DNA from: Candidatus Krumholzibacteriota bacterium
GTDB taxonomy: Bacteria > Krumholzibacteriota > Krumholzibacteriia > Krumholzibacteriales > WJIX01
DNA length: 64,000 nt
Direction: 5' to 3'
Assembly (NCBI GenBank): GCA_034520215.1
Contig: JAXHNR010000002.1
Coordinates: forward strand, 344,642-408,641
Position 1 is the stretch's first letter; each line of letters begins with the position of its first letter. Positions 8,401-64,000 of the stretch are shown in pieces. A program made the translations under genes and the position numbers. The notes beneath the pieces were generated by a model. It had not been told where the DNA came from. It saw only the letters and a program-made list of their open reading frames with translations, and made no database searches.

Positions 8401-9186
8401 TCTGATTATGAGTGGACAGACAAGATAAAAACTGCCAGGAAGGATGTTTTAGAAAAAATTATCGATCCGAAAAAGCGCGATGCAACGAATTTTCGCCAGA
8501 ATATGATGCGCAAACTCACCAAACTAAAGAAGGAATATCATAAAATATACCTGACAATGCACACCAAGGCACGGCTGGGGGTGAATTACGATAAACGCAA
8601 AACTCGCCTGACGAAGGACGAACGGCTCAAAGTATTGCAGAAACTATCGACTATTGATCTGATGCCGCGTCAGCATCTGAGCGATTTCCAGAACCGACTT
8701 GCAGGTCTGAAGAGTTGTTTTGCTTTTACAGAGCAGGACCTCGATGTTTCTCCAGTTTGTCCGCACTGCGACTACAGGCCTGGAGAAGAAATACCAGCGG
8801 TACCTGCCGAAAACTTGATCGACGAACTTGATGATGTGCTCGATAAACTTGTTAATGACTGGATTCGAACGCTTCTTAACAACATGGAGGATCCCACTAC
8901 AAAGGAACATTTGGAACTGCTTAAGCCCAAACAAAAGAAATTGGTAAAAGGTTTTATCAAAAGCAGGGAGCTGCCGGAGGATATGGATCAGGTTTTCATT
9001 AATGCGCTAAGGGAAGTACTCTCAGGATTGGTGAAGGTGTCGGTAAAAACAGCTGATATACGAGAAGCGCTCCTGGTAGGAGGTTCTCCCGCCACACTGC
9101 AAGAGATGAAAAAACGGTTTGAGCACTACATCGACGAGCTTTCCAAGGGAAAGGAACCCGGCAAGGTGCGGGTTGTATTGGAGTAG
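5458..9186 (+). CDS. brxC: BREX BrxC/PglY large P-loop ATPase
   Basis: 1242 aa. N-terminal Walker [13 protein letters not shown]. Size and position fit BrxC, with PglZ and a methyltransferase in the same operon. Confidence 0.7.
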
Positions 9187-9197
9187 GGATTTATTAT

Positions 9198-10364
9198 ATG
9201 AAAAAAAAATCAAAGAAATCAATAGAATCTGAAGGTAACCTTTTTAGTCGTGTTGTAACTATTTTGGAGCAGGCGCGAACAAATGTTATTCGCACAGTTA
9301 ATAACGAAATGGTGCTTGCATACTGGCAAATCGGACGAGAGATTGTCCAGTCAGTGCAGAGCGGTGATAAACGTGCTGGATATGGAAAGCAAGTTATTAA
9401 AGAGCTTTCTAAAGAGTTGAATAAAAAATACGGCAAGGGATTCTCTACAACAAATTTATGGTATTTTAGACAGTTCTATCTGGTGTATTCAGATCGGGAA
9501 CCCAGGATTCGCCACAAGGCGTGTGGAGAATTGAATTCTGGAGAAAAACTCCACAAGGCTTGTGGAGTTTCAAATGATTTAAGTATGGTTGTTGAAAAAT
9601 GCGAAGATATCAAAGGATTTTCCCCTCTCTTAAGCTGGTCGCATTATCGTACATTAAGTAAAGTTGAGCAAAAGAATGAACGCCTCTTTTACGAGATTGA
9701 GGCCGAAAAAGAAGGTTGGAGCGTTCCTGCCCTGCAACGCCAAATAGACTCCTTCCTTTTCCCTCGGCTTTTGAAAAGTAGGGATAAAGACGGAGTTATG
9801 GAGTTGGTAGAAAAAGGACAATTAATAAAAACTCCGAGTGACAGCATAAAAGATCCTTATATCCTTGATTTTCTTGGTCTGCCTGATTTTAAGCAAATAC
9901 ACGAATCAAAACTGGAAACTGCGATTATTGACAATCTACAATCATTCCTTCTGGAATTAGGTAAAGGATTTGCATTTGTTGCCCGGCAAAAACGTCTCCA
10001 GTACGAGGATGAATATTTCTATATTGATCTTGTTTTTTATAACTGCATTTTGAAGTGCTATCTTCTAATTGACCTGAAGATAGGTAAGTTGACACATCAG
10101 GATATCGGTCAGATGGACAGCTATATCCGGATGTACGATGATAAATATTTTACAGAGGGTGATAATCCATCAATAGGTCTTATTCTTTGCGCAAAGAAAA
10201 ACGAAACCATCGCCCGCTATTCGGTACTAAAAGACAGCAAACAGCTCTTCGCATCCAAATATATGCTCTGTCTGCCTACAGAGGAAGAGCTGCAGCAGGA
10301 ATTGGAGCGGGAACGGATACTAATTGAAAAGCTTCAATCCGAAGGAAAAGATGATCACGAATGA
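9198..10364 (+). CDS. DUF1016/YhcG-family PD-(D/E)xK nuclease
   Basis: C-terminal LELGKGFAFVARQKRL...YIDLVFYN...LLIDLKIGKL, with the D...D-x-K layout typical of the YhcG family. Inserted between brxC and the methyltransferase. Confidence 0.6.
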   Translation: MKKKSKKSIESEGNLFSRVVTILEQARTNVIRTVNNEMVLAYWQIGREIVQSVQSGDKRAGYGKQVIKELSKELNKKYGKGFSTTNLWYFRQFYLVYSDREPRIRHKACGELNSGEKLHKACGVSNDLSMVVEKCEDIKGFSPLLSWSHYRTLSKVEQKNERLFYEIEAEKEGWSVPALQRQIDSFLFPRLLKSRDKDGVMELVEKGQLIKTPSDSIKDPYILDFLGLPDFKQIHESKLETAIIDNLQSFLLELGKGFAFVARQKRLQYEDEYFYIDLVFYNCILKCYLLIDLKIGKLTHQDIGQMDSYIRMYDDKYFTEGDNPSIGLILCAKKNETIARYSVLKDSKQLFASKYMLCLPTEEELQQELERERILIEKLQSEGKDDHE

Positions 10365-10433
10365 AAAGGTATAAATTATCCACGACTGTTATTTGTGTTT
10401 ATTCGAATCCATTAATGGCCGAAGGGGTTATTT

Positions 10434-13379: not shown

Positions 13380-13381
13380 TT

Positions 13382-14674
13382 ATGGCGAAAATAGAAGGAA
13401 TCAGAATTCAAAATTACGGTGTGTTAAAAGATATAATACTGGGAAAGTTATGGAACTTACAAAATGCCAAACCACTGACACCCATGACTGCGGTTATTGG
13501 AAAAAACGGGGTAGGTAAGAGTTCTTTGTTCGATGCCTTTGGTTTTCTTGCTGATTGCCTGAAATTGGGAGTTGAAGATGCATGTAATGCCAGGGGGCGG
13601 GGCGGCTTTGAGCGTATTTGTTCTCAAGGGAGTAATGGCCCGATCGAGTTTCAGATATACTACAGGCAGCATGGTAATGCCAGACCTATTACATATGAAA
13701 TTGCAATTGACAAAGATAAGGCTGGCCGATCCTACGTAAAAAAGGAACGGCTCAGACAGAGGCGCAAGGGACAGAGCTATGGATGGCCTTTTTCGTTTCT
13801 TGTGTTGAATGAAGGAAAAGGAGTCGTATGGAAAGGCGAAGAACATGGACAGCAGATTGATGAAGGTAAAGTGGATTTTGACTTGTTCGGGTTGATGAAG
13901 AAAATTGGAGCAACACCACAAAAAGAAGAAAGCCGCGAAACAGAGATTATTGAACTACAAGACAAGCGCAAGCTTGGCATTGCAACCCTTGGGGCACTAA
14001 AACAACATCCCAGGATATCGGCATTTCGCCAGTTTATCGAGGGCTGGTATATGAGTTACTTTACTCCGGATGCTGCTCGCAGTCTTCCATTGGCCGGGCC
14101 ACAAAGGCATTTGAATATCCACGGAGATAATCTCGGTAATGTCGTTCAGTTCATGCAGCGTGATCATCCTAAACGTTTTAATAGTATACTCAATCGCATT
14201 GCTGAAAAAATTCCCGGAATTGACAAAATTGATACCGAAGAGAGTCCGGATAAACGGCTGCTTTTGCGTTTTAATGATAAAGGCTTCGATAGTCCGTTCT
14301 ATGCTCAGCAAATGTCTGATGGTACGCTAAAAGTCTTTGCTTACTTTTTGTTATTGGAGGATCCGACACCCCCGCCTTTTATCTGTATTGAAGAGCCTGA
14401 AAACGGGCTGTATCACAAATTGTTGGAGCCTTTGGCCGCTGAATTCCGTACGCATGCAACGGGCAGAAAAAACTCGCCGCAACTCTTTATTACCACGCAT
14501 CAACCATATTTTGTGGATGCACTAACGCCAGAAGAGACATGGATTCTTGAAAAAGGCTCGGACGGTTTTTCGAGGATACGAAGGGCCAGCGAGGATGCAA
14601 CCGTCAAAGCCATGGTAGATGAAGGATTACCGCTTGGTGGCCTCTGGTACAGTGATTATCTGGATGCGAGGTGA
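13382..14674 (+). CDS. AAA_21 / ABC-type (SMC-like) ATPase, defence-associated
   Basis: Start MAKIEGIRIQNYGVLKDI. Walker A GKNGVGKSSLFDA. C-terminal Walker B-like ICIEEPENGLYH. Start reassigned to the ATG at 13382, which follows GGAGAGGA. Confidence 0.65.
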   Translation: MAKIEGIRIQNYGVLKDIILGKLWNLQNAKPLTPMTAVIGKNGVGKSSLFDAFGFLADCLKLGVEDACNARGRGGFERICSQGSNGPIEFQIYYRQHGNARPITYEIAIDKDKAGRSYVKKERLRQRRKGQSYGWPFSFLVLNEGKGVVWKGEEHGQQIDEGKVDFDLFGLMKKIGATPQKEESRETEIIELQDKRKLGIATLGALKQHPRISAFRQFIEGWYMSYFTPDAARSLPLAGPQRHLNIHGDNLGNVVQFMQRDHPKRFNSILNRIAEKIPGIDKIDTEESPDKRLLLRFNDKGFDSPFYAQQMSDGTLKVFAYFLLLEDPTPPPFICIEEPENGLYHKLLEPLAAEFRTHATGRKNSPQLFITTHQPYFVDALTPEETWILEKGSDGFSRIRRASEDATVKAMVDEGLPLGGLWYSDYLDAR

Positions 14675-14678
14675 GCCA

Positions 14679-15341
14679 ATGCACTTTCAAATACATGTTG
14701 AAGATGCGTCTGGGAAAATCGTGTTGGAATCTATTATGGATAAGATTCTGAGCCCACAGGACCTAAATCACACATATAAAATATATTCTTACAAAGGCAT
14801 TGGGCGTATTCCAAATGACCTAAAAGGAACAATAGATCCACAAAAGCGCATTCTTATGGATAGATTGCCAAAGTTACTAAGAGGGTACGGGAAAAGTTTG
14901 CAGCATAGTTCTGTTTCTGTTGTGGTGTTTGTCGTAGATCTCGATTATAGGGATTGTATAGCATTCAAAGAAGAAATGATTGATGTATTAAATGCCTGCA
15001 ATCCAAAGCCAAAAACGCTATTCAGGATTGCGATAGAGGAAATAGAAGCTTGGTTGTTGGGAGATCGTAATGCTATTAAAACTGCTTACCCTCACGCAAA
15101 AAATCAGGTTTTAAACAGTTATCAGCAAGACAGTATATGTGATACATGGGAGAAACTTGCGGATGCCATATATTCTGGGGGATCGAAAAAAGTTAAAAAA
15201 CAGGGATGGCCCCATACAGGACAGTTAAAATGTCGTTGGGCGAAAAAGATTGCTCCTCATATGGATGTAGAAAATAATCAATCAAAAAGTTTCAGGATTT
15301 TCCGTGATGGAATAAGAAAATTGGCAGGAAGTGTGATCTGA
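14679..15341 (+). CDS. DUF4276-like Toprim/OLD-type partner of the AAA_21 ATPase
   Basis: HFQIHVEDASGKIVLESI (conserved acidic residues), VVFVVDLDYRD and the EEIEAWLL motif. Start reassigned to ATG 14679, 4 nt after the ATPase stop, with GAGGTGAG upstream. Confidence 0.5.
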   Translation: MHFQIHVEDASGKIVLESIMDKILSPQDLNHTYKIYSYKGIGRIPNDLKGTIDPQKRILMDRLPKLLRGYGKSLQHSSVSVVVFVVDLDYRDCIAFKEEMIDVLNACNPKPKTLFRIAIEEIEAWLLGDRNAIKTAYPHAKNQVLNSYQQDSICDTWEKLADAIYSGGSKKVKKQGWPHTGQLKCRWAKKIAPHMDVENNQSKSFRIFRDGIRKLAGSVI

Positions 15342-18136
15342 TGAACGGGAACAAATGGCACTACAGTCTCGATCACGACCAAATCTGCAAGGTTATTGAA
15401 ACCCAGAAGCTTTGGGGCAAAACCACCTGCTGTGTCTGGTTTCCGGTTTCGGACTCGGTGGTGCATGTTTCTGCGGCAGGACTTAAACCGATTGAGGACA
15501 TTGTAACATGTACGCCGGAGCATGTTACCTACATTGCAGCTGCAGCCAGGGTAGCAGAAGCGCTTACTCAGAATGTCCTGCTTTCGCCTGTTGAATCTTC
15601 GGTTATTCCTCTCCCCCATCAGATCAAGACACTGTCCCGGGCGATTTCTGGTGATAGGATACGCTATCTCTTGGCAGACGAGGTTGGGCTCGGAAAGACC
15701 ATCGAAGCTGGTTTGATCATGCGAGAGCTTAAATTGCGCGGTTTGGTTACAAGAACTTTAGTTATTTCACCCAAAGGCCTGCTTACGCAATGGATGGCCG
15801 AAATGCAGACTCATTTTGGAGAGGATTTTCGAATTCTTATTCCAGGTGATTTTTCAACCTATAGGCGTATAACCCGTGAAGAAAATATGTGGAAAAGCCA
15901 TGATCAAATTATCTGTTCCATGGATTCTGTAAAACCGATGGACAAACATCGTGGTTGGACGCAGGAGAGGATCACTGAATACAACAGCGAACGTTTCGAA
16001 GATCTGATTGCTGCCGGCTGGGATCTTATTATCGTGGACGAGGCGCACCGTCTTGGTGGAAGCACAGATCAGATCGCCCGCTTCAAACTTGGCAAGGGAT
16101 TGGCCGCGGCATCTCCCTATCTCTTGATGCTCTCCGCTACACCTCATCAGGGAAAGACCGATGCTTTTCACCGTTTGGTTTCCCTTGTCGATTCTGAGGC
16201 CTTTCCGAATGAAGCCAGTGTCACTAGTGAGAGGGTTCAACCTTACGTTATACGCACCGAGAAACGTCAGGCCATAGACGCAAAGGGAAGGCCGCTCTTT
16301 AAGCCCCGGCGTACGGAACTTGCCCCGATCGCATGGGAAAAACGACATCGGGATCAGGAACTTCTTTATGAAGCTGTTACCGAATATGTAAGGCAGGGTT
16401 ACAATCAGGCTAGAAAGGAAAAGCGAAGCTATATTGGTTTTCTTATGATTCTTATGCAACGTCTAGTAGTCTCAAGTACAGCAGCGATCAGCAGCACTCT
16501 TGAACGAAGACTGGAGGTGTTAAAAGCGCCGCAGGAACAGTTAAATCTGTTCCCGGATTATTCAGAAGAGGATTGGGCGGATATGGATGGAGAGGAACAG
16601 ATCGAAACTCTGCTGATGACCCGTTTGAATGCCATGAAAAATGAGAGAGCTGAGGTAAAATTGCTCCTCGATGTCGCAAGACGCTGCGCACAAGTTGGAC
16701 CGGATGCGAAGACTGAGGCATTACTGGACTGGATCTATCGGTTGCAACAGGAAGAAGGCGATCCGGAGCTAAAGATCCTCGTTTTTACCGAATTTGTATC
16801 TACCCAGAAAATGCTCGAACAATTCTTGAAAGATCGCGGGTTTTCAGTGGTTTGTCTGAATGGTTCACTGAACATGAATGACCGCAAAGATGTCCAGGAA
16901 TCTTTCGCGGAGGATGTGCGAGTTTTGGTTTCTACAGATGCGGGCGGCGAAGGCCTAAACCTACAATTCTGTCATGCTGTGATTAACTACGATATTCCAT
17001 GGAACCCGATGCGGCTTGAACAGCGCATTGGACGAGTAGATCGCATTGGTCAGGGGCATGTTGTACGAGCTGTTAACTTTATTTTTGATAGTTCCGTGGA
17101 GCATCGTGTGCAGGAGGTGCTAGAAGAAAAACTGGCTGTTATCCTCGAAGAGTTTGGTATCGATAAAACCGGTGATGTGCTTGATTCAGCACAAGCAGGA
17201 CAGATTTTCGACGATCTTTATGTGGAAGCCATTCTTCATCCGGAAGACGTGGAATCATCAGTTGATACGGTTGTTTCCCGTATCCATGATCAGATTCTGG
17301 AAGCTAAGAAAAGCTCTTCGGTCCTTGGAAAAGCCGAGGATTTAGACCCCGGTGAAGCAAAACGTCTGATGGTTCATCCGCTTCCCGACTGGGTGGAAAG
17401 TATGACGGTTAATTATCTGCATGCAAACGGAGGCAGGGCGGAAAAAAAGCGACGCACGTGGGACCTTGAGTGGCCGGACGGGGAGTTGTTTTCGAACATG
17501 GTTTTTACAAGAAAGGATGCCTTTGATATTCCAACTGCTCACCACTTGACCTTGGAGAATAAAAAAGTTCGCAATTTGGTAATGAAGTTGCCTCGAATGG
17601 TAAGGGGGCAGCCAATACAGTCAGTTAATATTCCGGGGCTTTCCAATGAAATTAAAGGGTTTTGGTCTCTCTGGACAATCACAATTCATGCTGATGACTG
17701 GAAATGGCAGCGGGTATTGGCCATATTTTTGCACGATGACGGCAGAATTCTTAAGCCTACAGCACGCCACATCTGGAATAAATTACTGGCAGTTTCTCCG
17801 GAGATTGGCAGACATCTTAAAAGCGATTCCGCTCATGACGCATTTGATCGAGTAATGGAAGCAGCAGAAAAGGATGGAAAGGCAATTTATGATGGAATCG
17901 TTCAAATGCACCGTAAACGCTTAATTCGTGAACGCAGCAAGGGAACATATGCCTTTAATGCAAGGCGAAAGGCCATGGAACAAATTGGATTGCCGCAAGT
18001 TCGAGACCACAGGTTGGGTAAATTGAATCGTGAAGAGGATGAATGGTGTGAGCAATTGGAACGCAGAGCTAAAGTGATTCCCGAAATGGCAGCTCTTCTT
18101 TTGATATACATGGAGGGAACCAATGCGATCAGGTGA
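15341..18136 (+). CDS. brxH: SNF2-family helicase, BrxHII-like
   Basis: Helicase motif I LLADEVGLGKTIEAG, motif II LIIVDEAHRL, motif III LMLSATPHQGK, and a C-terminal helicase domain (QRIGRVDRIGQ). 931 aa. Confidence 0.7.
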   Translation: MNGNKWHYSLDHDQICKVIETQKLWGKTTCCVWFPVSDSVVHVSAAGLKPIEDIVTCTPEHVTYIAAAARVAEALTQNVLLSPVESSVIPLPHQIKTLSRAISGDRIRYLLADEVGLGKTIEAGLIMRELKLRGLVTRTLVISPKGLLTQWMAEMQTHFGEDFRILIPGDFSTYRRITREENMWKSHDQIICSMDSVKPMDKHRGWTQERITEYNSERFEDLIAAGWDLIIVDEAHRLGGSTDQIARFKLGKGLAAASPYLLMLSATPHQGKTDAFHRLVSLVDSEAFPNEASVTSERVQPYVIRTEKRQAIDAKGRPLFKPRRTELAPIAWEKRHRDQELLYEAVTEYVRQGYNQARKEKRSYIGFLMILMQRLVVSSTAAISSTLERRLEVLKAPQEQLNLFPDYSEEDWADMDGEEQIETLLMTRLNAMKNERAEVKLLLDVARRCAQVGPDAKTEALLDWIYRLQQEEGDPELKILVFTEFVSTQKMLEQFLKDRGFSVVCLNGSLNMNDRKDVQESFAEDVRVLVSTDAGGEGLNLQFCHAVINYDIPWNPMRLEQRIGRVDRIGQGHVVRAVNFIFDSSVEHRVQEVLEEKLAVILEEFGIDKTGDVLDSAQAGQIFDDLYVEAILHPEDVESSVDTVVSRIHDQILEAKKSSSVLGKAEDLDPGEAKRLMVHPLPDWVESMTVNYLHANGGRAEKKRRTWDLEWPDGELFSNMVFTRKDAFDIPTAHHLTLENKKVRNLVMKLPRMVRGQPIQSVNIPGLSNEIKGFWSLWTITIHADDWKWQRVLAIFLHDDGRILKPTARHIWNKLLAVSPEIGRHLKSDSAHDAFDRVMEAAEKDGKAIYDGIVQMHRKRLIRERSKGTYAFNARRKAMEQIGLPQVRDHRLGKLNREEDEWCEQLERRAKVIPEMAALLLIYMEGTNAIR

Positions 18137-18836
18137 CAAATTTATCGAATTATTTAATAAGCTCGAGACAACTCTAAGACAAAAAGTAAACTGGAATAAT
18201 CATAAGTCTTTCTATCAATTAGTAAATGTGGCTGCTAAAAAGTATTCCGTAGTTCATAGAAATCGGGATATTCTGAAAGATTTTGGTAATCTTAGGAACG
18301 CTATTGTTCATGATACTAAGTATCCCAAGAAGATTCTAGCCGATCCGCGGCGTGAGACTTTGGATAGTTTAGAAAATGTATTTGAAGCAATCACCAACCC
18401 TAAAAAAGTTATTCCAAAGTTTCAGAAAGATATCAAAGTATTTTCCCTAGAAGAAAAACTTACTAAGGTTTTAAAATATATGGGCAAAAACGATTTCTCG
18501 CAGGTTGTTGTATATAACAATGAGCATTACCAAACATTGTCTTCTGAGGCTATTGTAGGATGGTTAAGAAGCGCCATCGGTGTTGGAATTGCTGATCTGG
18601 AAGGTTCTAAAGTTGAGAATTCCCTAATATTCGAAGACGAAAAAACATGCGAATATTTGTCTCGAAACGAACCAATTGATTCTGCCTTTGAACTATTTGA
18701 AAAGGCGATTCAAAGAAACATACCACGATTGCAAGCCATCCTCGTGTCAGAGTCGGGTAAGTCTGATCAAAAACCTTTTGGCCTTATTACTCCATGGGAT
18801 CTGCTCAGTATAAATGGAGAAGATACTAATGAATAG
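18123..18836 (+). CDS. hypothetical protein with HEPN-like Rx4H motif and C-terminal CBS-like segment, embedded between helicase and PglZ
   Basis: LRNAIVHD contains the R-x4-H HEPN signature. C-terminal KPFGLITPWDLLS resembles a CBS motif. Overlaps both flanking genes. Confidence 0.3.
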   Translation: MRSGDKFIELFNKLETTLRQKVNWNNHKSFYQLVNVAAKKYSVVHRNRDILKDFGNLRNAIVHDTKYPKKILADPRRETLDSLENVFEAITNPKKVIPKFQKDIKVFSLEEKLTKVLKYMGKNDFSQVVVYNNEHYQTLSSEAIVGWLRSAIGVGIADLEGSKVENSLIFEDEKTCEYLSRNEPIDSAFELFEKAIQRNIPRLQAILVSESGKSDQKPFGLITPWDLLSINGEDTNE

Positions 18837-20841
18837 TTGGCGAGGGCAGATTCTAAAGGAATTTACTCCTCGGGTTGCACGCCTGACGCTGGTTGCCGAC
18901 CCGGATGGGCTTTTACTGGAGGAAGGTATTTTGAAGGGGATTCGCGAACGTGGCTTCGAACTAATCCTTTTCGAGGATCATGTAGCATTTCGCTACGCTT
19001 ACGAATCTAAATTCCGTTCTCGCTGGGATCATGGTGAACACACTGATCTGGTGGTCGTATTGAGATCGCCCTCAAGCGACCTTGATTCTCTTCCCTATGA
19101 TCTTCTGCAGGCAGGGCGAAAACTGTCTTTTAATCTAGGAGAGCTGTTTCCCAATCTAAGTTACCCGGTGATTGCCGCGTTGGACGCGCAAGATCTTGAT
19201 GCTCTTTTTCTGGCTCAGCTACAGTATATGCCTGGTAACATGGGTGATAATGCGACAAAAGAATTTGTGCTGCGTCATGTATTCGAGATTGCCCCCGAAC
19301 TTATAAAACAGCCATCCGATCTTCTGCGGGTTTTGCTGCGCCGTCACTACCGGAGACAGCGGATACCTGCCATGCTTGATCAGCGTTTTATCCAGGTGTT
19401 AAGACAGAATGGTCTATTTAAAGATTGGCAGCTCGACAAAATTGTTTCCGACCGTGAAGTTTTCTTTGCTTTTCTGCAAGAGCGCTGGCCGGCTTTCCTG
19501 GATTGCATGGCTGACCGGGGAAAACAACCAAAGACGGGAAATGAAGGAAAAGGTGATTACGGACTCCAATACTCAGGCCCCCTAGATATTCCCTTCGACC
19601 ATGACGATATTCGGGTTTATATTGACAATTTGTTCATAGAGGGATTACTCCATTCTGTCTATCACAAAAAGGGTGATGAATTGAAGTCAACCTGGGCCGG
19701 AGTTGGCATCCAGACCGATGCAGAAGAAGATCATCAGTATAGACTGGACAGATTGATTGATATGATCCGTAACAATATTCCAACAGAGGATGCCAGGCAT
19801 ACAGATTGGTTCCGTTTCGGTTATAGCTATGCTGAAATTAGTGTACTCGAACATGAGATAAACAGCGGACTGTCGGGTGATGAAAAAGAGCGTATTGCTT
19901 CACTTCGTTTATCAGTTGATGAGGCATTTCGCGAGTGGGTTGAGGATCGGTTTGCAGGTCTACATAATCAGCCCCCCGTGCCACCGGCAATGATTCACCA
20001 CATCCCGAGGGTCCTGGCAAGGGAGATTGGTGACTCAAGTAAAAAGAAGGTCGCATTTCTGCTGGTGGATGGGTTAGCTCTTAATCAGTGGCTTGTCTTA
20101 CGTGATGTGCTCCAGTATCAAAGGAAAAAATTAGAATTCCGAGAAAGCGCTGTTTTCGCCTGGATTCCCACCGTGACATCAGTGTCACGGCAGGCTGCCT
20201 TTGCCGGTAAACCACCGATTTACTTTCCCTCGAGTATACATACCACGAATAAGGAACAATCCCTTTGGACTCAATTCTGGGCGGATCAAGGACTGACAGG
20301 CACTGCTGAAGCATACGCAAGGGGCATTGGGGATGGTGATATCGACAAGGTGCGTGAGATCCTATCGCGCCCGAAGATTCGTGTGGTAGGGCTTGTTATC
20401 GATAAGGTAGACAAAATTATGCACGGCATGGAACTGGGTGCGGCTGGTATGTTGAGCCAGGTTCGTCAGTGGGCTATGCAGGGTTTTATGTCTGATCTTA
20501 TTGACATTCTTCTTTGTCAGGGCTTTCAGGTTTTTTTAAGTTCAGATCATGGTAACATTGAGGCGCAGGGTTGTGGAAGGCCGGCTGAAGGTTCTGTTGC
20601 GGATATAAGGGGCGAGCGAATTCGCGTGTATCCGGATGATCTGTTGCGGGCATCGGTCAGGAAAGATTTTCCAGAAGCTATAGAATGGCCGCCGATTGGC
20701 CTGCCGGAGGACTATCGCGCCCTGCTGGCACCAGACCGAAAGGCATTCATTCGGAAAAACGAAACCACCGTCGGACACGGCGGAATTTCTATCGAAGAAC
20801 TGATAGTTCCTCTGGTTCAGATCTATAGGAGGAATAAATGA
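18814..20841 (+). CDS. pglZ: BREX PglZ alkaline-phosphatase-superfamily protein
   Basis: 675 aa. VAFLLVDGLALNQW and FLSSDHGNIEAQG (metal-binding D/H motifs of the PglZ/alkaline phosphatase fold). Confidence 0.7.
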   Translation: MEKILMNSWRGQILKEFTPRVARLTLVADPDGLLLEEGILKGIRERGFELILFEDHVAFRYAYESKFRSRWDHGEHTDLVVVLRSPSSDLDSLPYDLLQAGRKLSFNLGELFPNLSYPVIAALDAQDLDALFLAQLQYMPGNMGDNATKEFVLRHVFEIAPELIKQPSDLLRVLLRRHYRRQRIPAMLDQRFIQVLRQNGLFKDWQLDKIVSDREVFFAFLQERWPAFLDCMADRGKQPKTGNEGKGDYGLQYSGPLDIPFDHDDIRVYIDNLFIEGLLHSVYHKKGDELKSTWAGVGIQTDAEEDHQYRLDRLIDMIRNNIPTEDARHTDWFRFGYSYAEISVLEHEINSGLSGDEKERIASLRLSVDEAFREWVEDRFAGLHNQPPVPPAMIHHIPRVLAREIGDSSKKKVAFLLVDGLALNQWLVLRDVLQYQRKKLEFRESAVFAWIPTVTSVSRQAAFAGKPPIYFPSSIHTTNKEQSLWTQFWADQGLTGTAEAYARGIGDGDIDKVREILSRPKIRVVGLVIDKVDKIMHGMELGAAGMLSQVRQWAMQGFMSDLIDILLCQGFQVFLSSDHGNIEAQGCGRPAEGSVADIRGERIRVYPDDLLRASVRKDFPEAIEWPPIGLPEDYRALLAPDRKAFIRKNETTVGHGGISIEELIVPLVQIYRRNK

Positions 20842-56654: not shown

Positions 56655-57452
56655 TCAACTAATTATACTATATCTGATTCTGCTTAAATTTTCATCGCTT
56701 CTGGGTTTTCGGAAAATATATAAATGCTCATGCGCTATAAGAAGAATATTGAATTCCTCTGACATCTTCTGCCAGTACGGGTTGGATTTGCAGTTGTGCT
56801 GGATTTTTATAACATCTTCTCTGAGAGCAAAACCCTGCTTAAGAAATCTTTTTAAAACATATGAAGACAAAGGAATATAATGCCGATTTCTTCTAGTATC
56901 CCCGATCAAAACTGCACAAAAGCAGTCTTCTTTTAATACCCTGAAAAATTCCGCAATACCTTTTTCTAATTCATAACAGAATTTCTTGACTCCACCGATA
57001 TTCGATAAGTCACCTTTGATTTTTCCATTTGAATAATTGATTATATTAAGGTAAGGAGGATGTGTGAGTATTAAATCAACGCTTTCATTTTTAATGCCAT
57101 TTAAGGTTCTTACATCGCCAATTTTAACCTCAGGTTCATACTTATAATCACCTTTAAATGTTATATTTCTCTGTGCTCGTTTTACGGCTTCCGGGTTAAT
57201 ATCAAGCCCTATTGCCCTTCTGTTTAATAATTTTGCTTCAATTAAAGTTGTACCCCCACCAACCATGGGATCTAAAATCAGATCTCCTTCTTTTGAGTAT
57301 CTCAGAATTACATTCGTCGCTATCTGAGGTGCGAAATTACCCCTGTAATCCGAATTATGTGTAACCCAACTTCCTCTTTGAGGAAAAGACCACACGGTTG
57401 TGGTCTCCGTCACCTCATCATACCCTTTTACTTTCCTCAATCTTTTCCTCAA
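56655..57452 (-). CDS. DNA methyltransferase (N6A/N4C, pfam01555-like), second methylase of the RM operon
   Basis: LILDPMVGGGTTLIEA (motif I, DPxxGSGTT-like) and LILTHPPYL (motif IV). Confidence 0.65.
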   Translation of the reverse strand: MRKRLRKVKGYDEVTETTTVWSFPQRGSWVTHNSDYRGNFAPQIATNVILRYSKEGDLILDPMVGGGTTLIEAKLLNRRAIGLDINPEAVKRAQRNITFKGDYKYEPEVKIGDVRTLNGIKNESVDLILTHPPYLNIINYSNGKIKGDLSNIGGVKKFCYELEKGIAEFFRVLKEDCFCAVLIGDTRRNRHYIPLSSYVLKRFLKQGFALREDVIKIQHNCKSNPYWQKMSEEFNILLIAHEHLYIFRKPRSDENLSRIRYSIIS

Positions 57453-58692
57453 TCCACCTGCACCAGGATAATATGGTTGATGCTCTTCTTCTTAAAGTAC
57501 TTTCTGTACCACCATTTAAAACTGAATTCTTTCTCATTATCTCTGTAATGGCTTCTATCGATTCATCGCCTGACTTCAAGGCATTAAAGGAATCATAAAA
57601 AACTTTATGCTTGAATATTTGTCTTATCAGACCCTCATGTCTCTTGCTTCTGGGAAGTTTCACGAGTTCTTCCCCTAATTCAGTCAGACATACAATCCCT
57701 TTCTCTTTTGTAACAAGTTCTAAATATTTTGCGGCGTTGTAATAGTAATCCGCCTGCCTTGGATCAAAAGAGAAATAATCTGCGAAATCTTCTTTACTGT
57801 TAACGTCCGATTTAACCAGCTCCATTATATTTATAACCTTTTCAAAGTCATCTGCCTGCGGAAATGGAATACTCGCAGGATCAATTGGTAAAAAGTCCTT
57901 GATATCAAGAATTTCATCGGGAATTGGCTGTATTTCTTCCTGAAATAAAAAATTAGCTCTACTTAAAAGGACTATCGAATTGAAATTATCGTATTCAACA
58001 AATTCGAACTTCCAAAAACTAAAAACACCGTCAGAATATGAAAAAAATACCGGAATCACATTTTTATTGATTCTAGACATCCAATGTCTATAAGGATAGT
58101 ACAACTGTCTGATATTAAAATCATTCACTTTGCCTATTTTAGCTTCAACAATATAAAACTGGTCGCCCTCAAATCCTGCATCAAGTTCGGCTCCAGTTTT
58201 TGAAACTGTAATTTCTCTATCTCTATCAAATGTTTTAACCTTAAATTTAAAATCATCAGTGCCGAATTTTCCTCTGGCTGTGAACTTTATTTCATCGTCC
58301 AGAAATTCGGATAACATTTTCGAAATATCAGAGATAACTATGGCATTGTCCTCAGAAGTGATACTTTTTAAATCAATTGTTTCATAATCATCAATAATTG
58401 AGCTGTCAATCATTCTATTTTTATCTGAATATTTAACCTCACAATAAGAATTGAACTTTAAAAGCACATAGTCTTTCCTTGCAACGGGTAGAATTGAAAT
58501 ATCATTCTCCTTAAATATTTCCGGTCTGTTCTCGGAATGATCAAATTTGGCCATTAATCGGGGTTCCCTATTTGAAATATCCTTTATTTCAGTTGAAGAA
58601 ATTTTATATATCCCTTGTTCTTCTATCTTTTCAATAAGATTTAGATGCTTGTCTATTTCTTTCCAAGCCTTCTGATTTTTAGTTTCACGCAT
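57418..58692 (-). CDS. putative Type II restriction endonuclease
   Basis: Sits between two methylase genes with overlapping stops and starts. Candidate PD-(D/E)xK: ELDAGFEGDQFYIVEAKIG. Confidence 0.45.
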   Translation of the reverse strand: MRETKNQKAWKEIDKHLNLIEKIEEQGIYKISSTEIKDISNREPRLMAKFDHSENRPEIFKENDISILPVARKDYVLLKFNSYCEVKYSDKNRMIDSSIIDDYETIDLKSITSEDNAIVISDISKMLSEFLDDEIKFTARGKFGTDDFKFKVKTFDRDREITVSKTGAELDAGFEGDQFYIVEAKIGKVNDFNIRQLYYPYRHWMSRINKNVIPVFFSYSDGVFSFWKFEFVEYDNFNSIVLLSRANFLFQEEIQPIPDEILDIKDFLPIDPASIPFPQADDFEKVINIMELVKSDVNSKEDFADYFSFDPRQADYYYNAAKYLELVTKEKGIVCLTELGEELVKLPRSKRHEGLIRQIFKHKVFYDSFNALKSGDESIEAITEIMRKNSVLNGGTESTLRRRASTILSWCRWIEEKIEESKRV

Positions 58693-59635
58693 CGTAATTC
58701 CTTATAATCAGTTCCTTAACTTCGCCTCTTTTTTCAGCATTACAATTGATAACCCTTTTGGCAGTCACTCTTTCAATATTAAATCCCGAATAAAGATCAT
58801 CGAAGTAATCGTCATCCACATTGTAATTTTTGGGATCCGAATTACTGAGAAGCAAATAAGCGCCTTTCTTGTTCATTTTCTTGAAATATTCAGCCAATCT
58901 TATTTGATCTTCATTGTTAAAATCATCTTTAAAATAGCCGGTAAAATTAGACGTACTACTTATAGGTCTATAGGGAGGGTCAAAGTATACCATGCTGTTT
59001 TTAGTTATATGCCTTTTGGCCCTCTCGAAGTCTCCGCAAACTATTTTAGTATTTTTAAGTACTTTACTAACCTCTAGGATATTGACTTCATCGCAGATTG
59101 TAGGATTCTTATACCTTCCGGAAGGTACATTAAATTTTCCTTTGCTATTCTGCCTGAAAAGACCATTATAGCAGGTTTTATTTAAAAATATTAGATATGC
59201 TGCTCTTTCAACCCAATTATCAGTATAATCAGTGAAATTAAATTTAAGCATTTGCTTATTGTACTTTTCCCTGATTTGGTAATACATTTTTTTTCTATTA
59301 ACAACTTCTCTCCTAACATACCTGTTCTCAATTATTTTTAGTTCATTAATGAGCTCTGAAGGGTTATTTTTGATAACTTTAAATCCTACAATTAATTCCC
59401 TATTGATATCGAATAAAAAAGACTTTTCTATTTTAAAGTTATTCATCAGATAAAAAAATAAAGCTCCACCACCAACAAATGGTTCAACATATCTTTTAAT
59501 CTTGCCGGTATCTTTGATATTTTGAGGAAATCTTGATATTAATTCATTAATTAAAAGATTTTTCCCTCCAACCCATTTGAGAAAAGGTCTCGCAGCTCTT
59601 TTTGGTTGATTTTTAGTAATCAGACCTGTTGTCAT
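58685..59635 (-). CDS. dam: Dam-family (D12 class, alpha) N6-adenine DNA methyltransferase, probably GATC-specific
   Basis: RPFLKWVGGK, EPFVGGGALFF (motif I) and VYFDPPYRP (motif IV). Confidence 0.7.
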   Translation of the reverse strand: MTTGLITKNQPKRAARPFLKWVGGKNLLINELISRFPQNIKDTGKIKRYVEPFVGGGALFFYLMNNFKIEKSFLFDINRELIVGFKVIKNNPSELINELKIIENRYVRREVVNRKKMYYQIREKYNKQMLKFNFTDYTDNWVERAAYLIFLNKTCYNGLFRQNSKGKFNVPSGRYKNPTICDEVNILEVSKVLKNTKIVCGDFERAKRHITKNSMVYFDPPYRPISSTSNFTGYFKDDFNNEDQIRLAEYFKKMNKKGAYLLLSNSDPKNYNVDDDYFDDLYSGFNIERVTAKRVINCNAEKRGEVKELIIRNYDA

Positions 59636-60463
59636 AAAAAGATTATCCTATCAGTTTATATAAGATATTCGTAACTTTTAGCTATGCTTACACTATTCTT
59701 CTTTACCTGCCTAAGAAGATAGTGTTTTCGCCTCTTCAACCTAAGGTAATATTAGGCCAATTTTTAAACTTTGAAAAGTGTTAATTAGTACATTTACCTT
59801 TTCCTCCACGGTTATTAGACCGTATTTTTATTCCTGCAGATGATTTAGCTAATTAGAGCCAACCAAATAATTACTAAATGCTTTTCTTTCAGGGCAAGAG
59901 CGTCTGTCTAGCGTCAACTATTGTTTCTCTTCTTTCTGATCCAGCAGTTCCCCTATGTCTTTGAAAAACTCAGAGGAGATATATTCATAGAAAGGATGGA
60001 TTAGAACGAAGAGATTCCCATCGAGTTTATAATGGAGATGATCTTTCTGCTGTTCTGATTGTGATAGTATCTTTTTTGTTGAGAAATGAAGTAAAACGGA
60101 AAAGCCGTATTGTCACTCCCTCACCTGCCCCCGTCCAGCCTGATATTTTCTCTTTTATCGAAAACATTTCCGTATTCTAATGAAAAACCCGCGTAGAGGG
60201 GCTGCATGAGGAGATCCGGGTCATCCTACCGACAAGTAAGAAAAGGCGACTCAGACGGTTCTGGATCAGGCTGAAGTTCTGTGCGAAGAATGGATTGCTT
60301 AAAAAATGATTATTATCGGATAAGCATTCTTGAATATATTCATCCAATCTTTTTCAAGATAAAAAATTTCTGAGAACAACCAGGTGGTCACTTTGTCTCT
60401 TCCTATTCCCGAAAAAGAGGGCAGTTTCACTCTTGACATTATAACTGATTATATGGTATAAGG

Positions 60464-61321
60464 TTGTCCATCCGGGGAGAAGATATGGGTTTTATTTATT
60501 CAGATATAATCGAAAGTATCAGTTCGGAGGCTGCCTTTTCCAGCTCTGTTGTGCGTGAAGAGAGACTTAAGGGAAAATACAGTAATAACAAGGGGAAAGA
60601 ACCGGGTAGAGGAAAACTGTTGGGACGAGCTAGAGCGGCGCTTCGATCGAGGCATTACAGTGTAAGAACAGAAAAAACATATATATCATGGATTAAGAGG
60701 TTCATCCATTTTAATAACCTTAGACATCCCGCTGATATGGGAGATAGGGAAATAAACGAATTTCTCACCCACCTTGCAGTTAAAAGAAGTGTAAGTTCTT
60801 CAACTCAAAATCAGGCTTTAAGCGCGCTTTTGTTTCTATACAAATATGTGCTCAAGATTGAGCTCGGCGATCTTGGTGATATAATCCGTGCCCGTAAAAC
60901 GAAACGTGTTCCTGTTGTCTTAACGCGAGAGGAAGTCAGAAAGCTTCATAAAAAAGATCTGGCCGATGGATGGGGAAGAGTTAAAATGCCTTATGCTCTC
61001 GATAGAAAATATCCAAACGCCGCCGTTGAATGGAAATGGCAATGGGTATTTCCACAGGCGAACCGCTGGATAAACACAGCGAAAAACAAACAGGGCCGCC
61101 ACCATCTGGATCCGTCTATTATGCAGAAGACATTTAGGAGCGCTGTAGTAAAAGCAGATATTAAAAAGCAAGCAACCTGCCATACCCTGCGACATTCTTT
61201 TGCGACGCATTTACTTAAAGGCGGTTATGATATTAGAACAATACAGGAGCTTCTCGGCCATAAGGGTATAAAAACGACAATGATATATACGCATGTTTTA
61301 ATAGAGGGCCAAATGGTGTAA
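60464..61321 (+). pseudogene. intI: integron integrase IntI with an in-frame deletion of roughly 80 aa that removes the catalytic core
   Basis: [25 protein letters not shown] and [18 protein letters not shown] match the IntI N-domain. The IntI-specific insertion [21 protein letters not shown] is present. [13 protein letters not shown] and IYTHV boxes are present. The segment between VRKL and ALDRKYP is only 16 aa, so the catalytic Arg/Lys region is missing. Confidence 0.7.
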
Positions 61322-61527
61322 AGAGTCCAGCAGATGAATTGTAAATATTGAAGGGATTTTATACGGAAACCGTATAAGAACTTATTTGTTTTATTAAAGT
61401 TGAATAAGCACCTTACTTAAAAGGAGATATCGCAAAGATATTTAAGGAACATAGGTTGACGAAATAATCAAATATAGGTTTATACGTAAACTGTATATAC
61501 AATGTTCGCAGCACAAAGGAGGATAGA

Positions 61528-62016
61528 ATGAAGAGGTCAATTCCTGTTCTTGCAGTGGCATTGTTGTGTGTTTGCCTTCCCGCATTCTCCTATGCGGCTG
61601 ATCGCAATCCCTTTCTTGCCGAAGTGTCAGCCTTCAGTGTTGTCGTGGAGAACCTCTCGCCCTACCTGAAGGGAATTGGCATGACAGAGGCTGATATTCA
61701 GGACCGAGTGGAATTCCTGTGCAGAAGGAACTCTTTTCCCCTCAACTCAAAAGCGTGGCCGTGGCTCTACGTCCGCGTAACCGCCCTCCCTGTCACCGTA
61801 GGAGAACGGATCGTGGGCTATGCATACACAGTTGAACTCGCTTTCAAACAACTGGCCAAGACCAAGTCCAACGAAATGTATACCGTAGCATCATGGTCTG
61901 CTCGCACTTCCCTTGTAGTCGGACCACGAGAAGCCCTTCAACGGATGATCAAGGACACACTTCAGGACAAAGTCGAGGAGTTTGCCAACGTGTGGATGGC
62001 TTCGCACAATCAATGA
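61528..62016 (+). CDS. integron cassette ORF: secreted protein of unknown function
   Basis: Signal peptide MKRSIPVLAVALLCVCLPAFSYAADR. RBS AAAGGAGG upstream. An attC follows. Confidence 0.5.
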   Translation: MKRSIPVLAVALLCVCLPAFSYAADRNPFLAEVSAFSVVVENLSPYLKGIGMTEADIQDRVEFLCRRNSFPLNSKAWPWLYVRVTALPVTVGERIVGYAYTVELAFKQLAKTKSNEMYTVASWSARTSLVVGPREALQRMIKDTLQDKVEEFANVWMASHNQ

Positions 62017-62022
62017 ACCGGA

Positions 62023-62082
62023 CTGCGAACAATCTCCTGCAGGCGACGTCCTAAAGGCCGCGCCTGAGGAGTGACGTTAGGC
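62023..62082 (+). repeat. attC recombination site (about 60 bp) ending in canonical R' core GTTAGGC
   Basis: 5' arm gcgaacaatctcctgcagg pairs with 3' arm cctgaggagtgacGTTAGGC, with bulged bases. The next ORF starts 18 nt after the core. Confidence 0.55.
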
Positions 62083-62099
62083 GGCAACGAAAGAGGGCT

Positions 62100-63002
62100 A
62101 TGGATTCATTATTCAAACCTGGAAATAACTATGAGTACATTATGTCTGTGTGGAAAGATCGGGATTCGGCCACGGATACTGAACTATTGGAGTGCATAAG
62201 ATCAGAATGCGACCCTTGTAAGATTGCAGAGGCTGGCATTGAAAATGGTGGAAATCAGGTTGGCGTGCTTGGATTGATTATCGAGGAGATAGGCAGAAGA
62301 AAAATACGTGATGCTGCACCCATCATTGTCGAATATGTTGCTTGGCCGTACTACAATGACTTTTGGGTGCATCTTGTGCCACGTTGCTTTGAAGCTTTAT
62401 GCAAGATAGGCGATGACTCAATTGTTGGTCGCTTCTTAGAGTTGACTTCTGGCGATATCGCAGCAAAATCGATAATCGCCAATCTCCATGCAGTCTCATC
62501 TCAGATATACTCAAATGGGCTAGCAGAGCCGTTGGAATCCGAACCGAAAAAAGATCCCCGCGCACGAATGATCATGATAGCAATAGAAGAAAACCTCATA
62601 AAGGTCCGACAAATTATGAAATGGGCGGATTCTACAATTGGCAATACGAATCAACCTCCACCAGCATGGCTGTGCGATTTATCACTACAAGGACATTTCA
62701 GTATCCGGAATGCGCCCGAGGACGATGATATCGTTCCTTCTTTCGATGAACGGTGTATCTGTATAGTTGCCTTCAACAAGGCGGGTGTAATTTCTTTCTC
62801 GGACACTGTTGAAAAAATTTTTCGTGAAGAACTTGATGGATTCATAGTCGGAAAGAAGGCTTTGAGATATTTGTTGCAAACCCAAGCTTTTCGATCGCAA
62901 AAAAATGTTATGAGTATTAAAAAGCAAATTGAAAAGTGCTTCGATGAAATTGTTGAACGAAGGCCTTTGTTAATGGATATGATGAAAGATTTGACAGCCT
63001 AA
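62100..63002 (+). CDS. integron cassette ORF: hypothetical protein (300 aa)
   Basis: Starts 18 nt downstream of the GTTAGGC core. RBS GAAAGAGGG. Confidence 0.5.
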   Translation: MDSLFKPGNNYEYIMSVWKDRDSATDTELLECIRSECDPCKIAEAGIENGGNQVGVLGLIIEEIGRRKIRDAAPIIVEYVAWPYYNDFWVHLVPRCFEALCKIGDDSIVGRFLELTSGDIAAKSIIANLHAVSSQIYSNGLAEPLESEPKKDPRARMIMIAIEENLIKVRQIMKWADSTIGNTNQPPPAWLCDLSLQGHFSIRNAPEDDDIVPSFDERCICIVAFNKAGVISFSDTVEKIFREELDGFIVGKKALRYLLQTQAFRSQKNVMSIKKQIEKCFDEIVERRPLLMDMMKDLTA

Positions 63003-63136
63003 CAAGGCTAATTCAGCCGACGCAAAAAGCCGCGCGGCTGATTAGCAGCGATGGCGCGGACGCTTCGCGAGACAAGGAATTAATGAATGAGGAATATCTA
63101 AATAAGTATTAAGAGGGTGGAGGCGCTGTGGTGCCG

Positions 63137-63270
63137 CGCCAACGGGCTGCGGATTTCCATCCGCATTCTGTCCGTCGCTAAAGCGCCGGCTATCATGCGC
63201 CTGCAGCGGGCGGTAGGGCCTGCGAGCAAGCTCGCGGCCTCTCCCGCCGCTGATCCGCAGCCCGTTATAC
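63137..63270 (+). repeat. attC-like site with 11-bp perfect L''/L' pairing and an R'-like core GTTATAC
   Basis: gggctgcggat (63144-63154) is the exact reverse complement of atccgcagccc (63253-63263), which sits immediately before GTTATACGT. GC-rich central region. The annotated ORF start at 63117 lies inside this structure. Confidence 0.5.
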
Positions 63271-63296
63271 GTTTAATTCTTCAAGGAGGGGTAAAG

Positions 63297-63803
63297 ATGG
63301 CAAATGATGATTCGACTGTCGGGAATAAACTAGCTGGTATGTTCTTTGAGAACTGGAATGAAAAATCAGCTATTTCGAAATTGAAAACTCAGCATTCCAT
63401 TAAATCGCCAGAGCACAGTGTTTTCATGAGCTTGTTCTGGTTATTTTACCTGGCTTATACACGTGCTGCAATGTCATCACCTGATAAGATATCTTCTCAA
63501 CAATTCCAGAATATTGCAGATCACCTAACAACAAATGTTATAACCAAATTCAAGGATATCTTCGATTCGAGTGAGGATTCAGCAGACTTGCTAGCACTTT
63601 ACGGTGGAATTGCCGAAGGATTGTTCGGATGCTACAACACAAATTTAAACAGTTCTCCTTCGGTGCACTGGCATATCGGCAAGGAAATGTGTGTCATACT
63701 TAATGGTCCTGGTGCTGAACAGGATCCATCGCTAATCACCTATTTCGCAGATATGCTTCACAATGACTCAGTGAGAATTAAGGAATATTTTAATAATATG
63801 TAG
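63297..63803 (+). CDS. integron cassette ORF: hypothetical protein (169 aa from ATG 63297)
   Basis: AAGGAGGGGTAAAG precedes ATG 63297, which is 27 nt after the GTTATAC core. The upstream part of the track ORF overlaps attC and is rejected. Confidence 0.5.
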   Translation: MANDDSTVGNKLAGMFFENWNEKSAISKLKTQHSIKSPEHSVFMSLFWLFYLAYTRAAMSSPDKISSQQFQNIADHLTTNVITKFKDIFDSSEDSADLLALYGGIAEGLFGCYNTNLNSSPSVHWHIGKEMCVILNGPGAEQDPSLITYFADMLHNDSVRIKEYFNNM

Positions 63804-63818
63804 TCTGGATATTACTAC

Positions 63819-63918
63819 AACGTATAACTTTGCTTGCAGCTGGCGGTCTTGGCTGTCACTGCGGCTGCGCAGCACCCGCCGCGCCAGCCGGCGTCAGCAG
63901 CTGAAGCGAGCGTTAGAC
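63819..63918 (+). repeat. attC recombination site (about 100 bp): R'' aacgtataac, R' GTTAGAC
   Basis: Outer arms acgtataac and gttagacgt are near-complementary. Inner arms ctttgcttgcagctg and cagcagctgaagcgag pair with bulges. GC-rich centre. Next ORF ATG at 63935, 17 nt after the core. Confidence 0.6.
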
Positions 63919-63934
63919 GTATTAGGGAAAAACT

Positions 63935-64000
63935 ATGAAAGGGCAAGTATTCACGATCGGGAAGTTAAACTATATAAATGGAGTTGTCTACTTTGTAGCC
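63935..64000 (+). CDS. 5' end of a further cassette ORF (runs off the window)
   Basis: AGGGAAAAACT-ATG follows the attC core. Open to the window end (MKGQVFTIGKLNYINGVVYFVA). Confidence 0.35.
   Translation, partial: MKGQVFTIGKLNYINGVVYFVA

Follow-up and report, generated by a model that had tools for sequence, protein, structure and literature searches.

The 64,000 nucleotides analyzed here (positions 344,642 to 408,641 of contig JAXHNR010000002.1, assembly GCA_034520215.1, of a Candidatus Krumholzibacteriota bacterium; this whole stretch is called the window) end in an integron consisting of an integrase gene (intI), an attachment site (attI) and a series of cassettes separated by attC sites. 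With a probability of roughly 85% we regard this locus as an inverted-type chromosomal integron that was active until recently, whose intI gene was then disabled by two lesions and whose cassette array has been frozen since. According to this reading, intI would be transcribed towards attI and the cassettes. The cassettes C2 and C1 would have been gained exactly at the attI crossover, as judged by three intact relatives in which a non-coding element, E, directly follows attI. After these gains intI would have been disabled by a 219-bp in-frame deletion removing the first catalytic Arg and the beta-hairpin Lys, and by a 1-nt deletion beyond the catalytic Tyr codon that replaces the 14 C-terminal residues. 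The resulting protein would no longer be able to cleave DNA, so that the array from C1 through C2, E, C3 and C4 and beyond would be frozen in cis; it might still be mobilized by an integrase supplied in trans. The locus would thereby capture the decay of an integron in a clean and datable state, in which two cassettes were gained at attI before the integrase was lost.

The identity of intI was established by profile searches. Its product scored 322 bits with TIGR02249, the integron-integrase model of NCBIfam (cut-off 265 bits), while the XerC and XerD models gave 105-109 bits at cut-offs of ~330 bits. PF13495 was matched with 106 bits. The match to PF00589 (73 bits) covered only profile positions 94-168 of 172, i.e., what remains of the tyrosine-recombinase catalytic domain is its distal part, next to an N-terminal SAM-like domain. 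Accordingly, VchIntIA (2a3v) could be aligned in two blocks (chain residues 8-115 and 189-309), with ~73 residues missing. The IntI-specific segment ALDRKYP...WQWVFPQ, which is invariant in the protein alignment, is retained and falls within the second block. A preliminary description of this DNA, made from the sequence alone, had already recognized an integron integrase, and these data bear it out; the other possibility raised there, a full-length XerCD-type recombinase without the IntI domain, does not agree with XerC/XerD scores far below the cut-offs. The catalytic set Arg-Lys-His-Arg-His-Tyr is incomplete: HxxR, H and Y are still present, the first Arg and the Lys are gone. Among the best 120 of 8000 scored homologues the closest proteins are full length (315-360 amino acids). 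The best three are 81-84% identical to the intI product over the best local alignment, which spans ~44% of the query. One of them is the nearest relative with a name, the integron integrase of a Candidatus Latescibacteria metagenome-assembled genome (~79-84% identity). Automated annotation would still call the broken gene 'integron integrase', which is relevant to surveys counting active integrons.

To locate the lesions, we used alignments with the full-length relatives P0001, P0002 and P0003, which are encoded at the loci L084, L085 and L002, respectively, and with other full-length relatives. The protein alignment disclosed a single 73-column gap between REEVR and KLHKKDL. The block absent from the intI product contains GLRLxEC and RDGKGxKDR in the relatives; in tyrosine recombinases the Arg of GLRLxE is established as the first catalytic Arg and the Lys of GKGxKDR as the beta-hairpin Lys. 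None of the best 120 of the 8000 scored homologues shows this gap. In the DNA alignment with L084, L085 and L002 it amounts to 219 nt and is in frame. The preliminary description had inferred an in-frame loss of the catalytic core because only 16 instead of about 95 residues separate the LTREEVRKL box from ALDRKYP; the alignment upholds this and sizes the deletion at 73 residues. In the relatives, similar 8-9-nt repeats mark either edge of this block, and for this reason the deletion probably arose by slippage between 8-9-bp direct repeats. The second lesion had been overlooked. At 61296-61307 the relatives read TTTTAAATAGAGG and the window TTTTAATAGAGG, a 1-nt deletion which changes the frame four codons past the catalytic Tyr codon (61286-61288). 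It replaces the last 14 residues of the protein, the ancestral C-terminus being legible in the next frame. With two lesions in intI, we would rather class the locus as a degenerate integron, in which a cassette array is accompanied by an intI pseudogene.

The preliminary description had also suggested that the spacer between intI and the first cassette is attI and that intact integrons should be compared. This comparison revealed not only both lesions but also the attI junction. Downstream of intI, the window, L084, L085 and L002 are alike up to ...ATACAATG and diverge exactly there. As the window continues with TTCGCAG (junction G61504/TTCGCAG), the crossover can be placed between G61504 and T61505, and the spacer 61322-61504 is attI, conserved in all three intact relatives. 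The site is thereby located to the base in an integron family that is non-proteobacterial and has received little study. In the three relatives attI is directly followed by ATGGCGCGGACGCTTCGCG, with which element E begins. Insertion of C2 and C1 at attI in the lineage of the window would mean that the integrase was active after the divergence from these relatives.

All four loci have a hairpin (TTATACnGAAACCGTATAAGAA) with a T-rich tract 3′ of intI, followed by a conserved TTGAC and a second palindrome. The hairpin at 61357-61379 may terminate intI transcription instead of being bound by IntI. Of the tatacg palindromes formerly assigned to attI, the first is this possible terminator. If it works, cassette expression in the co-oriented layout would need a promoter of its own in attI. 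A scan for sigma-70-type promoters yielded no convincing candidate in attI, where the conserved TTGAC at 61456 has a weak -10 partner only. Directly upstream of the intI open reading frame (ORF), at 60435-60464, TTGACA and TATAAG are separated by an 18-nt spacer, the relatives having TTGACG at that place. This sequence is likely the intI promoter. Inspection by eye for a LexA-box-like CTGT-N8-ACAG gave none.

The array is made up of four complete cassettes (C1, C2, E and C3) and a fifth, C4, which is cut by the window end; all ORFs are on the + strand. The earlier count of at least four cassettes co-oriented with intI and separated by attC sites thus rises to five. In the window, E is preceded by ...GATTAGCAGCG and followed by TTATACG. 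These flanks fix two further cassette boundaries, and the remaining ones were deduced from the GTTRRRY cores (GTTAGGC at 62076, GTTATAC at 63264 and GTTAGAC at 63912). The three cores had previously been noticed as ends of palindromes each following an ORF. They proved correct, but attC2 had been missed and the palindrome at 63264 belongs to E, which contains no ORF. The distance from the end of the core to the next ATG is 17, 26 and 16 nt, respectively, instead of the 17-27 nt given before. For the product of C1 no Pfam or NCBIfam match was obtained. In attC2, R″ (GCCTAAC) overlaps the stop codon of C2, and the hybrid R′ (G/ATGGCG, the slash marking the cassette boundary) has GAT instead of GTT because element E follows.

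Each complete cassette begins with the reverse complement of its own R″: TTCGCAG in C1 corresponds to CTGCGAA(C), TTAGGC in C2 to GCCTAA(C), ATGGCGC in E to GCGCCA(A/T)C and TTATACGTT in C3 to AACGTATAA(C). At the four variable R-box positions of the four cassettes, complementarity to the own R″ was found in 16 of 16 cases, compared to 5 of 16 for the adjacent hybrid R′. The complementarity extends over 8 nt in C1, 7 nt in C2, 7 nt in E (8 nt in L002) and 10 nt in C3. This is the trace expected if each cassette was once circular and closed at its own attC. The folds of attC1, attC2 and attC3 consist of an R stem and an L stem separated by an unpaired spacer; a single base, T in attC2, is bulged out of the L stem on the R″/L″ arm. 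The attC of E has neither a spacer nor a bulge in its outer 14 bp and departs from canonical attC sites in this feature. We did not regard the bulged G/T on the top strand as an anomaly. Canonical attCs are usually described with G/T on the bottom strand, but those of cmlA8, dfrA14 and dfrA1 share a top-strand G. The longest ORF in this region (63117-63803, 228 amino acids, GTG start) crosses the attC of E, which is G+C-rich, and continues in frame into the C3 gene. The true start of C3 is almost certainly the ATG at 63297 behind AAGGAGG, a gene which mechanical ORF calling would mis-annotate.

Table. Features of the integron in the window (relatives: loci L084, L085 and L002)
Feature	Position	Strand	Remarks
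intI pseudogene as now read	60464..61321	+	285 codons; TIGR02249 322 bits; two-block alignment to 2a3v
Junction of the 219-nt in-frame deletion	60935..60943	+	one GTCAGAAAG copy left; DNA and protein alignments
1-nt deletion in an A run	61300..61301	+	TTTTAAATAG in the relatives, TTTTAATAG in the window
Ancestral 3′-end of intI, out of frame	61302..61344	+	14 residues, then stop; matched to the C-termini of the relatives
Conserved hairpin TTTTATACGGAAACCGTATAAGA, then T-rich tract	61357..61379	+	terminator-like score; kept in L084, L085 and L002
attI core	61440..61510	+	TTGAC 61456-61460, palindrome TTTATACGTAAACTGTATA 61479-61497, crossover; four-locus comparison
Cassette C1	61505..62076	+	ORF 61528-62016, 162 amino acids, signal-peptide-like N-terminus; attC1 62024-62082
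Cassette C2	62077..63050	+	ORF 62100 (or 62142)-63002; attC2 62997-63056
Cassette E	63051..63264	+	ORF-less, strongly structured; attC-like 3′ part 63188-63270
Cassette C3	63265..63912	+	ORF 63297-63803, 168 amino acids; attC3 63822-63918
Cassette C4, truncated by the window end	63913..64000	+	ORF start 63935; after the attC3 R′ core

The attC sites were also examined by covariance models. A scan of 58000-64000 with Rfam 15 (E-values up to 10) gave no attC match in this region and nothing credible for element E. Therefore, we built an attC model of our own. The first version (R1) had trimmed attC arms, was unable to span sites longer than ~60 nt and was replaced by model R2. The latter is based on 15 different full-length attC sites of class 1 integrons from plasmids (dfrA14, a chlorite-dismutase cassette, a cupin cassette, qacG2, aac(6′)-IIa, cmlA8, an OXA-10-type cassette, arr-2, dfrA27, aac(6′)-Ib, OXA-2, orfD, dfrA1, gcuC and aac(6′)-IIc), on which the textbook R/L-box structure was imposed. 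On class 1 loci R2 assigned 43-69 bits to real attCs, including sites outside the training set, and its matches at E-values below 0.1 were confined to the arrays and to the cassette strand. When R2 was run over the whole window on both strands with filters off, the four predicted sites came out as its four top matches, all on the + strand. attC3 (27.1 bits, E-value 3.4e-4) and attC1 (27.0 bits, E-value 3.5e-4) were significant, followed by the attC of E (11.1 bits) and attC2 (10.8 bits), while the best match elsewhere reached 10.6 bits. A covariance scan, as proposed in the preliminary description, thus supported the sites even with a class 1-trained model. The sites of the window share with class 1 attCs the inverse R″/R′ cores, unpaired spacers of 5 nt and 5-6 nt and an L-stem bulge three pairs in, and attC1 and attC3 align with the model end to end. 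They differ from them in the lower scores of attC1 and attC3 (27 bits versus 43-69 bits) and in the GAT of the hybrid R′ of attC2.

Some observations weigh against a recently disabled integron. Taken singly, neither attC2 nor the attC of E is significant in R2, both being backed by rank and position only. R2 also missed the attCs of L002, hence its sensitivity in this clade is limited. The intI ORF is still open for 285 codons and scores above the family cut-off. As the 1-nt deletion affects a homopolymer, it could reflect an error in sequencing. Finally, no independent contig covering intI was found, the flanks being covered only by short Logan contigs of SRR26473340.

The open reading frame might indicate that the shortened integrase has been repurposed, either as a regulator or protector binding to attI/attC or as a dominant-negative partner of another integrase. 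Such a role would be in line with what the protein still has, namely its N-terminal DNA-binding domain, the IntI-specific insertion and, at the C-terminal end, the HxxR/H/Y region, as well as with a deletion that is exactly in frame, leaves the ORF open and the TIGR02249 cut-off exceeded, and the promoter-like TTGACA-18-TATAAG just upstream. However, the second, frame-shifting lesion fits decay and not selection, and the architecture occurs in no other protein among the best 120 of 8000 scored homologues. Moreover, intI loss is more advanced in several metagenome loci of the same attI family, where only the last 25-75 intI codons are left, followed by attI, E and cassettes (L099, L110, L116, L124, L133, L169, L180 and L205). 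Integrase decay hence seems to be recurrent in this family, and we consider repurposing unlikely. An equally low probability is assigned to the assumption of an integron that is in reality intact, one lesion or both having arisen as artefacts of assembly or sequencing. The frameshift concerns a single base of an A run, where errors are typical, and a second assembly of the intI stretch could not be found; yet a clean 219-nt in-frame gap with only ~9 nt of repeat would be an unusual assembly error, the flanks are identical in the independent Logan contigs L001 and L083, and the window is not a chimera of the intact relatives because its cassette content differs. That the locus is no integron at all and merely comprises a XerC/D-like recombinase beside ordinary genes with terminator hairpins is hardly conceivable: hairpins after genes are common and two of the four attC sites missed significance in R2, but the gene passed TIGR02249 and scored poorly with the XerC/XerD models, its IntI-specific insertion aligns to 2a3v, the 16/16 complementarity supports cassettes and E has exact boundaries at different array positions in the relatives.

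To assess the orientation of the disabled integron, we surveyed 83 related loci with R2 (E-values up to 0.1). attC sites were detected in 42 of them. In half of these (21/42) they lie downstream of intI on the same strand. The co-oriented loci belong to Coriobacteriia and other Actinomycetota, Cyanobacteria, Acidobacteriota, Gemmatimonadota, Cytophagia, Neomarinimicrobiota, Binatia and one deltaproteobacterium; L002 is co-oriented as well. Another 20 loci (Microbulbifer, Halieaceae, Burkholderiales, Verrucomicrobia and Desulfamplus) have attCs upstream on the opposite strand, the classical divergent arrangement, and one locus with a single attC match downstream of intI on the opposite strand falls into neither class. 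The mean best-segment identity to the IntI of the window was 61% for the co-oriented and 50% for the divergent loci. The co-oriented layout had initially been taken as rare. This view could not be maintained in the face of 21 co-oriented versus 20 divergent loci, the former being the closer relatives, and co-orientation is, as far as the compared sequences tell, the norm in the IntI clade of the window. Environmental integrons commonly have this layout. It has been described in the literature as that of the inverted integron-integrase group, first in Treponema (PMC3607928, PMC4889954), and this group was reported to be paraphyletic (PMC4889954). The window shares its layout with the Treponema denticola-type inverted integrons, and loci of Treponema, Coriobacteriia, Cyanobacteria and further non-proteobacterial groups are among its closest genome relatives, co-oriented where attC sites are detectable. 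It differs from them in the host lineage, the nearest named relative being the Latescibacteria genome, and in its broken integrase.

Element E turned out to be a member of a family of structured non-coding cassettes. Copies were identified in the window (63051-63264), in L002 (4436-4651), in L085 (1597-1808) and in metagenome loci (L098-L212). A metagenome scan with the first 19 nt of E gave at least 78 E-like matches on at least 75 contigs. Among the matches listed, E is always located inside cassette arrays and on the attC strand. About 16-22 of the 78 listed matches directly follow an attI-like, AT-rich TTATnCGGAnCnnTATAAnCAnTG, and about 48 come after 3′ arms that belong to unrelated attC sites; a G stands in front of 75 of the 78. 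E is the first cassette after the attI-like TTATnCGGAnCnnTATAAnCAnTG in L110, L113, L120, L121, L124, L133, L141, L180, L182, L192, L196, L204 and L212, and we propose this sequence as a putative consensus attI for the integron family of the window. In L124 (2900-3260, - strand), where a 3′ remnant of intI precedes attI and E, the DNA upstream is unrelated and has a LemA-like and an aminotransferase-like gene. On the E-bearing contigs R2 found significant attC sites in 24 contigs, and all 41 sites are on the strand of E. In 80 genome loci no E was present within 10 kb of intI.

The common form of E has ~150 nt; an extra AT-rich insert of ~55 nt occurs in the window, L002, L085, L118 and L133. 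Fold z-scores of -5.0 and -6.8 were calculated. An alignment of 40 distinct copies yielded a three-branched consensus of 36 pairs, with 97.2% of the cells paired and compensatory changes at 16 pairs. The observed values were reached by none of 500 shuffles, and in slid controls 21-48% were paired. The G-T wobble count, used as an indicator of the strand of E that folds, was 24 versus 15, without a decisive bias. In the R box of the dominant subfamily, GCGCCATC/GATGGCGC, GAT replaces GTT (GAT/ATC core instead of GTT/AAC). In L154 (3841-3987) we found a variant (GTTGTCGAGG...CCTCGACAAC) with the canonical GTT/AAC core, whose 5′ hairpin and R box have fully covaried, which supports the interpretation of the 5′ hairpin of E as R′/R″ pairing. 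E is bounded by G/AT and G/TT, and its array position differs between the window and the relatives. Two other interpretations of E were discarded. It starts with ATG and is open in the short variant; a peptide gene was rejected, though, since the copies differ by non-triplet indels of 1-2 nt, which are compensated across stems, and since the copies of the window and L002 are in different frames. E is also not a fixed part of the platform, as it follows many unrelated attC 3′ arms and has the L154 variant with the canonical core.

ORF-less integron cassettes are known as a class, e.g., the promoter cassettes of a Treponema oral metagenome and the small RNA cassettes of Xanthomonas (PMC8876359, PMC6557892). 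E resembles them in its cassette boundaries, the attC-like 3′ part and the lack of a conserved ORF. In contrast to them, it forms a sequence-conserved family of ~150 nt, nearly all of which is a three-branched hairpin, with a GAT/ATC core in the dominant subfamily. In a full-text literature search we found no description of the E sequence or of a conserved non-coding cassette family. Within E the promoter scan detected no sigma-70-like promoter. The repeated occurrence of E directly after attI raises the question why a non-coding cassette so often holds the first position. E may for this reason have a role of its own, be it as an insulator or terminator between intI and the array, as a regulatory RNA or as a modulator of attI recombination. 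We put forward only tentatively that this undescribed, widespread family of structured non-coding cassettes is more than a selfish empty cassette. E is a practical lead, since its effect on cassette expression or recombination is directly testable.

Integrase decay, inverted integrons and ORF-less cassettes have each been documented before. In Xanthomonas, intI genes have been inactivated by frameshifts, stops or large deletions, whereupon the array persists and turns static (10.1101/2025.06.18.660453, citing Gillings et al.). Among 279 CALINs (attC-site clusters without an integron integrase) 15 have an intI pseudogene nearby (PMC4889954). These cases have in common with the window that the integrase is inactivated and the cassette array kept. 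They are, however, divergent and proteobacterial, while the decay in the window is at an early stage, with an open ORF above the family threshold and an intact attI.

Apart from the integron, the window carries genes of a defense system. A BREX (bacteriophage exclusion) type 3 system is located upstream at 5458-20841. It includes a PglZ gene (18814-20841; 862 bits versus BREX_PglZ_3), a gene for an SNF2/DrmD-like helicase (15341-18136) and a weak, below cut-off match to a BrxC-type P-loop protein (5458-9186). Directly upstream of the integron, at 56655-59635 (-), two DNA methyltransferase genes (MethyltransfD12; N6_N4_Mtase) lie around a gene for a DUF6996/DUF6997/DUF7226 protein. The G+C content of this region is 29-34%, that of intI ~40% and that of the cassettes 45-53%. 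The region 56655-59635 is probably a restriction-modification or defense module of foreign origin.

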